64,000 bases of DNA, taken from contig CAWHDP010000002.1 in NCBI GenBank assembly GCA_963828125.1, forward strand, positions 1,720,394 to 1,784,393. The letters are read 5' to 3'. The notes beneath the pieces are model-generated. The model worked only from the letters and a program-made list of their open reading frames with translations, ran no database searches and was not told the DNA's origin. This document shows, piece after piece, positions 60,472 through 62,052 of this stretch. Numbering within the stretch: position 1 is the stretch's first letter; every line of letters begins with the position of its first letter. The DNA comes from an uncultured Chlamydiae bacterium. Its GTDB lineage: Bacteria; Chlamydiota; Chlamydiia; Chlamydiales; SM23-39. The position numbers and the translations under genes were made by a program.

Positions 60472-62052
60472 CTATAATTTTGCGTGTGACTGCAGTTCTT
60501 TGCTGTCTTCTTTACTCTTGCTCGATTGCTGATAAAGTGCGATAACTCTCTCTGAAGGGAAAGCAGCGGCAATCTCAAACCATGCAGGCTGTAAAATCTT
60601 TAATACTGTCCTATCAAACATCATCCTGACAAGTTCCATTTGCAAATCCTCTTTTAAAAGGCCAAGTTCTTCGGGCGTAAGCGGAATATTTACATTGAGA
60701 TTGGTATTCAAATCCTTTTCCCTATCTGTAGGAGTCGGATCTAAACTCATTGGATCAGAAAATGTGTGGTCGACAAATTTTTTCCCTCTCCAGAGAATCT
60801 CCTTCTCATAGCGCGGCAGGACGTGGCTGTGAGGGTGGTGATATAAGGGATCGGAGGTTCGCGCTCCATTTTCGTCTTTGTCCATATTGCCAGCTTGCGC
60901 ATAATTACCCCTGTTCGCATTGAACAACCGTTGGCAAGCAGTGAAGTGGATTTTTTGCATTCTTATCCTTTCTGGGGCCACAAGGATCTCTTGCTCTGGA
61001 TTCAACTCGTGTTGTTTGAGAGGAAGCACTGCTCGGCCAAGCCAACCCCTGGCGCCGTGTTGATCTCTTCTTAAAAGGCTTCTGCAATGATTCCCATCGA
61101 GGATCATCCGATCTGCGTCTTGTTGAGGAGGTACGCACGATAGACACTTGACTGTGTACCTGTTTTTCAAGAAATATTCAAAACAATTTTTCAATGTCGA
61201 TAGCAGTTGGTTATTTTTATTCTGCCGTGCGAAATCTACAATCTCCTGATTCATACAAGGCTCCGCAGGCTGAATTTCTTGCGAAAATACAGAGATATGA
61301 GGAGGGAATTTCAGATCGTTTAAACCGAGCGCTTTCCTATATTGGTCAAGTCCTGTCACCTCTACAACAATACTCAACACATTCGATAGCCTGCCCGCTT
61401 GAGGAGCCCCTCTTTTCACACCAATGGGCTTAATGCGGACCTCTTGCCCTTGTTCAACAAAGCTTGCGTGCGCTTTGGCAATTTTTTCGGGCTCTTTAGA
61501 CATTTCTCCCGGCTCAACCGTCGTGATATGTCCCTCGCGATCAAAAGCAGATCCAACCTCGTCTTTTTCCTGCCGATATGGCTGCAGTATCTTGACTGCT
61601 GCTGCAAACTCCTGCTCCGAAATGTCAATTCTCCCCCCATAATCCTTGGTCTGATCGCTGGGTAATCTATAAAGAGTGTAGCTCCCTGTTGTGATCACCC
61701 CCTGAAGAGCGCTCACAATTTGTGGGTCGTCAATTCTTTCAAAGTCTACCTTTTTAGGATAAAATAAAAGAGTATCTAACTTTTCCTGCAACTTCCTTTT
61801 TAAATCGGGATGATTCAATAGCATGTTGTGTGATTTGATATCTTGAAAACAGTCTTGAACAACAGTCCGAACCTGCATTACATACTCTTGAATTGCTGCT
61901 GTTTGTTGGGAAGAATCTGAAGCCGCCAATTGGCAAAAGCCCGCCAACAACGAATACACAAAAGTTTGCTTCTCCCCCAATTGCCTTTTAACGCCTGAGA
62001 AAAGAGCCATATCGATGCTTCTCACTTGATTTTGAACTTCTCTAACAGTCAT
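60472..62052 (-). CDS. hypothetical protein with a HIT-like (histidine triad) region
   Basis: 526 aa with a strong RBS (AAGGAGAGTGT-ATG). At aa ~300-420: VKCLSCV...ILDGNHCRSLL...GRAVLPLKQH...GNMDKDENGARTSDPLYHHPHSHVLPRY. This parallels the HIT pattern C-x-x-C ... H-x-L-V-x-P-K-x-H ... N-x-G ... H-x-H-x-H-V-x-P-R. Confidence 0.5.
   Translation of the reverse strand: MTVREVQNQVRSIDMALFSGVKRQLGEKQTFVYSLLAGFCQLAASDSSQQTAAIQEYVMQVRTVVQDCFQDIKSHNMLLNHPDLKRKLQEKLDTLLFYPKKVDFERIDDPQIVSALQGVITTGSYTLYRLPSDQTKDYGGRIDISEQEFAAAVKILQPYRQEKDEVGSAFDREGHITTVEPGEMSKEPEKIAKAHASFVEQGQEVRIKPIGVKRGAPQAGRLSNVLSIVVEVTGLDQYRKALGLNDLKFPPHISVFSQEIQPAEPCMNQEIVDFARQNKNNQLLSTLKNCFEYFLKNRYTVKCLSCVPPQQDADRMILDGNHCRSLLRRDQHGARGWLGRAVLPLKQHELNPEQEILVAPERIRMQKIHFTACQRLFNANRGNYAQAGNMDKDENGARTSDPLYHHPHSHVLPRYEKEILWRGKKFVDHTFSDPMSLDPTPTDREKDLNTNLNVNIPLTPEELGLLKEDLQMELVRMMFDRTVLKILQPAWFEIAAAFPSERVIALYQQSSKSKEDSKELQSHAKL

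Follow-up and report, generated by a model that had tools for sequence, protein, structure and literature searches.

The 64-kb window analysed here, a stretch of 64,000 nucleotides from a 1.92-Mb contig of a Chlamydiales metagenome-assembled genome (MAG), raises the question of what an environmental chlamydia might do with a 526-residue protein that carries the landmarks of the histidine triad (HIT) superfamily in its C-terminal half and a 2H phosphoesterase fold in its N-terminal half. The gene in question is the following.

60472..62052, minus strand: whole gene, 526 aa plus stop, with a helical bundle, 2H phosphoesterase, linker, HIT-like core and helical tail

Overall, we believe that the product is a two-headed nucleotide/RNA-end phosphoesterase, possibly directed against a host, and that its gene belongs to an accessory set, probably gained by horizontal transfer, in an environmental chlamydia; we put the probability of this reading at roughly 0.55. 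The protein represents a divergent subfamily, without a characterised member, of a well-known superfamily, and the way in which its domains are combined is new.

The C-terminal half contains a divergent HIT domain

A preliminary description of the locus had proposed a divergent HIT-family module at 60778-61155, a span equivalent to aa 300-425. The features that bear on this proposal are these.

60727..61155, minus strand: HIT-like core, aa 300-442 (AlphaFold2 (AF2) model, Foldseek, family profile)
61135..61146, minus strand: C303-L-S-C306, the CxxC of Zn-binding HIT proteins (conservation, alignment with 1y23)
61009..61011, minus strand: H348, a conserved histidine upstream of the triad that closes the 'lviPkxH' strand (conservation, alignment with 1y23)
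60811..60840, minus strand: histidine-triad motif H405-H406-P-H408-S-H410-V-L-P413-R414 (conservation, alignment with 1y23)
60769..60771, minus strand: D428 in a family-specific motif (conservation)
60475..60726, minus strand: C-terminal helical extension, aa 443-526 (model helices, alignment of closer relatives)

Every landmark previously listed for the module could be located: CLSC at aa 303-306, GNHC at aa 320-323, the LKQH strand running to H348, and HHPHSH followed by VLPRY. HHPHSH (aa 405-410) lies at nt 60823-60840, as claimed, and the full HHPHSHVLPRY occupies aa 405-415 (nt 60808-60840), ending at Y415. The numbering of the triad needed correction by one residue: positions 407 and 409, given as histidines, are Pro and Ser, and the triad is H406/H408/H410, with H405 as an extra histidine. 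Across the 128,000 residues of the window's six-frame translation, H.H.H..[PG]R is found a single time, and it arose in 23 of 200,000 shuffles of the 526-aa protein; its presence in this protein is beyond chance.

An exhaustive phmmer search with aa 290-526 against 1.84 billion representatives clustered at 50% identity (E<=1e-3) revealed a small family of 40 representatives, 36 of which were aligned to give a family profile, A3. Searched singly with phmmer, the protein reaches Bacillus subtilis Hit (1y23) with the triad correctly aligned at a sub-threshold E of 0.36, and the Pfam HIT family PF01230 is matched directly by nine of the 36 relatives (best 6.4e-7). The profile is far more sensitive: against the PDB, A3 matches 1y23 at 4.6e-10, 3imi at 1.8e-9, 2oik at 1.9e-8 and 3l7x at 1.5e-6, with at least 15 HIT entries besides 1y23, and more weakly GalT 6k5z (2.5e-4, one half-domain) and FHIT (0.019). 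In these alignments the CxxC, the His-ending strand and HxHxHxxPRY of the solved HIT proteins are all in register with the family; C303/C306 falls on CifC of 1y23, H348 on PktH, and the triad on HyHmHiiPRY.

Conservation within the family follows the same landmarks. H348, H406 and H410 are present in all 36 aligned relatives and H408 in 34, both cysteines in each of the 35 sequences that cover the position, and R340 (35/36), P413 (34/36), R414 (30/36) and D428 (34/35) are nearly as constant. The relatives share just 23-58% identity, and retention of the triad histidines, the upstream His and the P-R pair at this distance is the pattern expected of selection for catalysis. The earlier observation that Pro and Ser stand where hydrophobic residues are usual between the triad histidines is accurate for this protein and its closest relatives, to which the substitution is confined; in most of the family these positions are V, A, Y, W or F, the canonical phi pattern.

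The predicted structure leads to the same place. An AF2 model of the HIT-like domain, built with the A3 alignment, has a mean predicted local distance difference test (pLDDT) score of 93.7 and a predicted template modelling (pTM) score of 0.90, and nearly all of its top 50 Foldseek matches in the PDB belong to the HIT superfamily, with probabilities of 0.75-1.00, mostly at least 0.9. Among them are Mycobacterium tuberculosis Rv2613c (3ano, the best at 4.9e-4), FHIT (1fit, 1.5e-3), Zn-HIT 3o0m, GalT, CWF19L2 and HINT1. The HIT reading stands because a match was found in both profile and structural comparison and the histidines are conserved among homologues. We conclude that aa 300-442 form a genuine divergent HIT domain with its catalytic and metal landmarks conserved.

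The closest comparison is with the bacterial Zn-binding HIT proteins of PF01230 (B. subtilis Hit 1y23, B. anthracis 3imi, Methylobacillus Mfla_2506 2oik, Mycobacterium smegmatis Zn-HIT 3o0m), which have the same fold and whose CxxC, His-ending strand and H-x-H-x-H-x-x-P-R-Y align with the family position by position. Going by this correspondence, the domain probably binds zinc, with C303, C306, H348 and H406 holding a structural site as in Zn-HIT proteins, and H348 is what we take to be the equivalent of FHIT His35 and Hint His51. The differences are equally clear. Identity to the bacterial proteins is only ~13-20%, the window protein has an insertion of 8-10 residues before the triad (G-N-x-x-x-D-E-x-G-x-P-T-S), and Arg (R340) takes the place of the canonical 'GH'-strand His. 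After the HIT core, the family has an extra motif that canonical HIT proteins lack, F/W-x-D-x-x-F followed by L-N-I-D-P and including D428, and the window protein further adds a helical tail of ~85 aa and the fusion to a 2H domain. The tail (aa 443-526) is predicted as helices at domain residues 154-163, 171-189, 202-206 and 212-236 with pLDDT mostly above 90, and it is kept in the closer HIT-like relatives, so that the C-terminal ~100 residues, described earlier as having no recognisable relatives, do have them. FHIT and Rv2613c are the best structural matches and share HxHxHxxPR with the window protein; the sequence-profile relation of FHIT to the family is weak, and FHIT is not known to have a CxxC zinc site.

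A catalytically dead HIT-like module, acting as a zinc-stabilised binding or scaffold domain in the manner of the CwfJ/CWF19-type domains of spliceosomal proteins, might be suggested by the CWF19L2 chains in the Foldseek list (6id0_U, 3jb9_c, 9l5r_U) and by the Pro and Ser between the histidines. We consider it extremely unlikely, given that the triad, the upstream His and the P-R pair have been retained across relatives as diverged as these.

The chemistry of the head is a harder matter, since fold similarity does not separate a hydrolase from a phosphorylase. The HIT head might be a phosphorylase or nucleotidyltransferase whose His-nucleoside monophosphate (His-NMP) intermediate is resolved by phosphate or another acceptor, as in Rv2613c, an Ap4A phosphorylase, and the enzymes of the GalT branch. 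Rv2613c is the best Foldseek match, GalT structures appear in both the Foldseek list and the profile search, and the zinc pattern of CxxC, His and first triad His is a feature of GalT too, as in the Escherichia coli enzyme. At the same time, the motif is HxHxH and not the HxHxQ of GalT, the protein has a single HIT core of ~140 aa where GalT has tandem half-domains, and bacterial Hit is closer by profile by 5-6 orders of magnitude. On these differences we rejected the GalT-like affinity hinted at in the preliminary description, and we consider a phosphorylase or transferase unlikely. Assignment to the aprataxin family was rejected as well: the C-terminal 85 aa are helical without a Cys/His finger pattern, have no Pfam match, and none of the top 50 fold matches is aprataxin.

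The N-terminal half contains a 2H phosphoesterase domain

The ~300 N-terminal residues had also been described as having no recognisable relatives. This proved incorrect, for the region consists of a helical bundle and a 2H phosphoesterase domain.

61765..62052, minus strand: N-terminal helical region, aa 1-96 (AF2 helices 3-25, 31-43, 52-74, 82-96)
61258..61755, minus strand: 2H phosphoesterase domain, aa ~100-265 (Pfam 2H-SAK, Foldseek, motifs)
61519..61530, minus strand: first 2H motif, H175-I-T-T (model strand 175-179)
61288..61299, minus strand: second 2H motif, H252-I-S-V (model strand 252-259)

The Pfam family 2H-SAK (PF22547), the 2H domain of the 'Swiss Army Knife' (SAK) RNA-repair proteins, matches aa 155-257 at about its cut-off of 27 bits, with scores of 27.1 to 28.5, and nine of the 12 relatives of the N module also reach it (E<=0.01). 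All 12 of these relatives have H175 and T178, 11 keep H252, and both motifs sit on predicted strands of a model with a pLDDT of 91.6. The helical region that precedes the domain is kept in P0002-P0007 and P0048-P0053 and belongs to the module that is also found on its own in proteins of ~300 aa. A sequence profile of the N module returned nothing meaningful from the PDB. By structure, the first Foldseek match in the PDB is the cyclic phosphodiesterase (CPDase) of Deinococcus radiodurans (5h7e, probability 0.93), the second the 2',5'-phosphodiesterase ns2 of mouse hepatitis virus (4z5v, 0.85), and phage Acb1 (7t26) comes eleventh, its likeness to the module a weak one (0.23). Taken together, aa ~100-265 are a 2H phosphoesterase fold with both HxT/S motifs, at H175 and H252, conserved.

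All of these enzymes (LigT/CPDase, coronavirus ns2, Acb1 and the SAK 2H domains) have two HxT/S motifs on central strands in common with the window protein, and the solved 2H enzymes lack the helical region of ~96 aa that precedes its 2H domain. The SAK proteins, in addition, have a ligase, kinase or phosphatase partner, which the window protein does not. We therefore rejected its assignment as a SAK RNA-repair protein: neither the protein nor its neighbours contain an RNA ligase, kinase, HAD or DSP phosphatase domain.

The best structural matches of the whole N module lie in giant viruses. Against BFVD, a collection of predicted viral structures, a protein of Orpheovirus (A0A2I2L4M2) is matched best, at 2.2e-9 over 269 columns, and one of Yasminevirus (A0A5K0UAJ9) at 7.2e-5, after which come phage proteins whose annotation is SAK 2H domain, RNA ligase or 2'-5' RNA ligase. 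An amoeba-associated life style is common to these giant viruses and the chlamydial protein's bearer. The two viral proteins are uncharacterised, are known as predicted structures only, share 14% identity with the module and, at 200-240 aa, do not include a HIT module.

A fusion of otherwise separate modules

Outside the window, the two halves are found apart. N modules stand alone in P0002-4, P0006-7 and P0049-53 (298-413 aa), and the HIT-like C modules stand alone in P0005, P0008-11 and others (214-312 aa); two further stand-alone HIT-like genes, without an informative conserved neighbour, came from a metagenome scan. Among the protein matches found, only the 526-aa window protein has both modules in one polypeptide, and no other 2H-HIT fusion was seen. 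We rejected the idea that the fusion stems from an assembly chimera or a frameshift: the identical 526-aa sequence is recorded for a MAG labelled 'Chlamydiales bacterium', and L006, an independent scaffold of a different assembly, runs through the domain junction at 100% identity, a run of N being its sole discontinuity. The fold, then, is a known one, the domain combination is new, and the HIT-2H fusion is so far unique.

Each module nonetheless keeps varied company. The 2H module occurs with ankyrin repeats in P0048, and the HIT-like module with a histidine phosphatase in P0032, with a MYND finger in P0012 and with a weak NTP_transf_2 match in P0042. Several HIT-like members have hydrophobic C-terminal tails of the membrane-tail type or signal-like N-termini, as judged by eye from the alignment. 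At the locus L001 (5286-7672), a 572-aa ankyrin-repeat gene lies upstream of the HIT-like gene P0009 with an overlap of 4 nt, which suggests that the two are translationally coupled. One relative, the 266-aa HIT-like gene P0060, forms a Tn3-family unit with a transposase and a resolvase; since the same unit is found on two contigs of one assembly (L010 2034-6801 and L011 2034-6801), this gene evidently travels as transposon cargo. Other HIT-like relatives lie beside HipA/HTH, HigB/HTH, HepT/MNT and Gp49/HTH modules, and the contigs of the relatives have 35-43% GC.

Some further observations concern the relatives themselves. Locus L001 also has a NUDIX gene ~2.3 kb upstream on the opposite strand. 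The stand-alone P0005 has an extra C-terminal domain of ~85 aa (aa ~225-312) without a Pfam match, and P0031 has an extra C-terminal, internally repeated Cys-rich segment (aa ~190-350). Distant relatives with HAHIHGIPRY lie on L018 (P0042) and on the Joint Genome Institute (JGI) contig of P0033, where all called genes are widely spaced and have no Pfam match.

An accessory gene in a low-GC block

The genomic setting of the gene is distinctive. Nearby housekeeping genes (UvrD/PcrA, KdsB, RpoN and a heptosyltransferase) have 52-59% GC, while the 2H-HIT gene has 44.2% and lies within a block of 45% GC that extends from 55.5 kb to the window end at 64 kb. Encoded in it as well are a LuxR-type regulator, an ankyrin and SET protein (Ank-SET), a DnaJ-domain protein and unannotated open reading frames (ORFs), and the whole has the look of an acquired block of host-interaction genes. 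Next to the 2H-HIT gene there is no gene for an RNA ligase, kinase or nuclease. We regard the gene as accessory because of its atypical GC content of 44% (housekeeping genes have 52-53%), its Ank-SET and DnaJ neighbours, its Tn3-borne relative, the mere 40 representatives of the family and the Chlamydiales host.

These same observations argue against an ordinary housekeeping enzyme, that is, a HinT-type purine phosphoramidase or AMP-lysine hydrolase fused by chance to an unrelated domain. The closest solved relatives by sequence are indeed generic bacterial Hit/HinT-like proteins. The family, however, is tiny, pattern scans of 185,579 species-representative genomes turned up no relative, the domain has its own extra motif and helical tail, the GC of the gene is atypical, and the family displays an effector-style shuffling of domains; a housekeeping role is in our judgement very unlikely.

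Another alternative leaves the chemistry unchanged and alters the target. The protein might serve in intrabacterial conflict or for a mobile element, whether in counter-defence, in toxin-antitoxin-like control of RNA damage or in RNA repair, and have no host-directed effector function at all. Such a role would accord with the two-copy passenger gene of the Tn3-family transposon, with the toxin-antitoxin-type modules beside other relatives, with 2H-SAK as the closest Pfam family of the N module and with the phage RNA-ligase proteins in the BFVD list, and in conflict systems 2H enzymes are widespread cleaners of 2',3'-cyclic phosphate RNA ends (PMC9503650). Against it, the window gene has no ligase, kinase or nuclease next to it; PADLOC gave no match and has no model for either module; the only PHROGs match was insignificant and was to a relative; and neither scans of viral contigs nor tblastn against plasmid and phage records gave a match. 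The ankyrin fusion and coupling, the C-terminal membrane tails and the eukaryote-like neighbours point, moreover, to a eukaryotic host. On balance, we consider a conflict or mobile-element role unlikely.

How the two heads might work

For the two-headed phosphoesterase that we favour, a mechanism can be outlined from the established chemistry of the 2H and HIT superfamilies. In the 2H head, the two histidines would open a 2',3'-cyclic phosphate or cut a 2',5' or 3',5' bond in a small oligonucleotide. In the HIT head, H408, the middle histidine, would be the nucleophile at the alpha-phosphate of a compound in which a nucleoside-5'-monophosphate is joined to a leaving group, and a 5'-adenylylated nucleic-acid end, a dinucleoside polyphosphate, a cap-like structure and a phosphoramidate are candidates for this compound; the resulting covalent His-NMP intermediate would be resolved by water. 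More speculatively, both heads may act on one substrate class, RNA ends or nucleotide-derived signals, and the protein may be delivered into, or directed against, a eukaryotic (amoebal) host. RNA termini or nucleotide-derived small molecules are suggested as substrates because the HIT-like module pairs recurrently with 2H, histidine phosphatase and possibly nucleotidyltransferase domains, and because of the SAK-type affinity of the 2H module. The idea of a host-directed protein, in turn, stems from the eukaryote-like neighbours, from the relatives with ankyrin repeats, membrane tails or signal-like N-termini, and from the likeness of the 2H module to a protein of amoeba giant viruses.

Aprataxin, a HIT enzyme that removes 5'-AMP from abortive ligation intermediates, would offer a functional analogy for the joining of a HIT head to an RNA-end enzyme, as a HIT domain that acts at nucleic-acid ends within a multidomain protein. 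The window protein has neither the FHA domain nor the C-terminal C2H2 zinc finger of aprataxin.

Several observations weigh against the reading just outlined. Compared directly with Pfam and NCBIfam, the 526-aa protein has no HIT match, 2H-SAK being its sole match, and the HIT assignment rests on the family profile and the predicted structure; the Foldseek E-values against the PDB are modest, 5e-4 for HIT and 0.03 for 2H. Given the Pro and Ser between its triad histidines and the insertion before the motif, the nucleotide pocket may differ from that of canonical HITs. The 2H and HIT-like modules were not found as adjacent separate genes in any of 18 related loci, and the single fusion is the only sign that the two are functionally linked. 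Finally, the neighbourhoods of the relatives are variable, often with toxin-antitoxin or transposon genes, and would suit a conflict function within bacteria no less than an effector function.

As folds, HIT and 2H enzymes are both familiar ground. Their presence in one polypeptide of a host-associated bacterium would imply a substrate that needs both chemistries; candidates are an RNA whose 3' end is damaged or cyclic and whose 5' end is adenylylated or capped, or else nucleotide second messengers together with the products of their breakdown. That the protein is a secreted chlamydial effector is plausible on circumstantial grounds, namely the low-GC block, the Ank-SET and DnaJ neighbours and the relatives with ankyrin repeats or membrane tails. 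If it is delivered to the host, it would represent a new enzymatic class in the effector repertoire, and would tie chlamydial to giant-virus strategies in amoebae; a check of the full text of an atlas of Legionella pneumophila effector domains turned up no HIT-fold effector (PMC11696984).

A bolder version of the host-directed idea can also be formulated. For example, consider a secreted two-step eraser of host nucleotide signals or RNA-end marks, in which the 2H head cuts 2',5'- or 3',5'-linked or cyclic oligonucleotide messengers or 2',3'-cyclic ends, and the HIT head then destroys the NMP-X product, ApnA or cap-like molecules, the whole forming part of a toolkit shared horizontally between amoeba-infecting chlamydiae and amoeba giant viruses. 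We hold this scenario to be unlikely. Were it true, the protein would be the first HIT-fold bacterial effector, and a new way to subvert immunity or RNA metabolism in protist hosts. If the protein is not delivered, what we describe here is a small, divergent and mobile HIT subfamily. The subfamily deserves a family definition, because the current Pfam and NCBIfam models miss it.

Other features of the window

The start of the 2H-HIT gene is preceded by a ribosome-binding site, read from the sequence.

62058..62063, minus strand: Shine-Dalgarno AAGGAG, 5 nt upstream of the ATG

Three of its neighbours in the low-GC block can be described further. The Ank-SET protein (56475-58082, minus strand, 535 aa) has ankyrin repeats (Pfam E 2e-12) and a SET match that, at 21.0 bits, stays below the cut-off of 22.4; in the NCBI annotation it is an ankyrin repeat protein from a Chlamydiales MAG. 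Its architecture is reminiscent of the LegAS4/RomA-type histone methyltransferase effectors of Legionella. The ORF at 58079-59386 (minus strand), which abuts the Ank-SET gene with an overlap of 4 nt, encodes a DnaJ (J) domain at aa 138-183, beyond which no domain could be recognised, and its listed TTG start is doubtful. On the plus strand, 62402-63295 is an ORF of 297 aa with an N-terminus, LRLMPPEVQREALLFCSPKDLALYARVDKA, that appears F-box-like by eye and has no Pfam match at E<=1.

Elsewhere in the window, two large adjacent ORFs at 47645-51499 (minus strand; 601 and 648 aa) have no Pfam match and 38-40% GC in a genome of ~52% GC, and are probably another acquired or host-interaction island. 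A further ORF of 521 aa, at 22907-24472 (minus strand), has 43.8% GC between neighbours of 50-56%, and adjoins the only tRNA gene of the window, tRNA-Arg ACG at 22728-22801.

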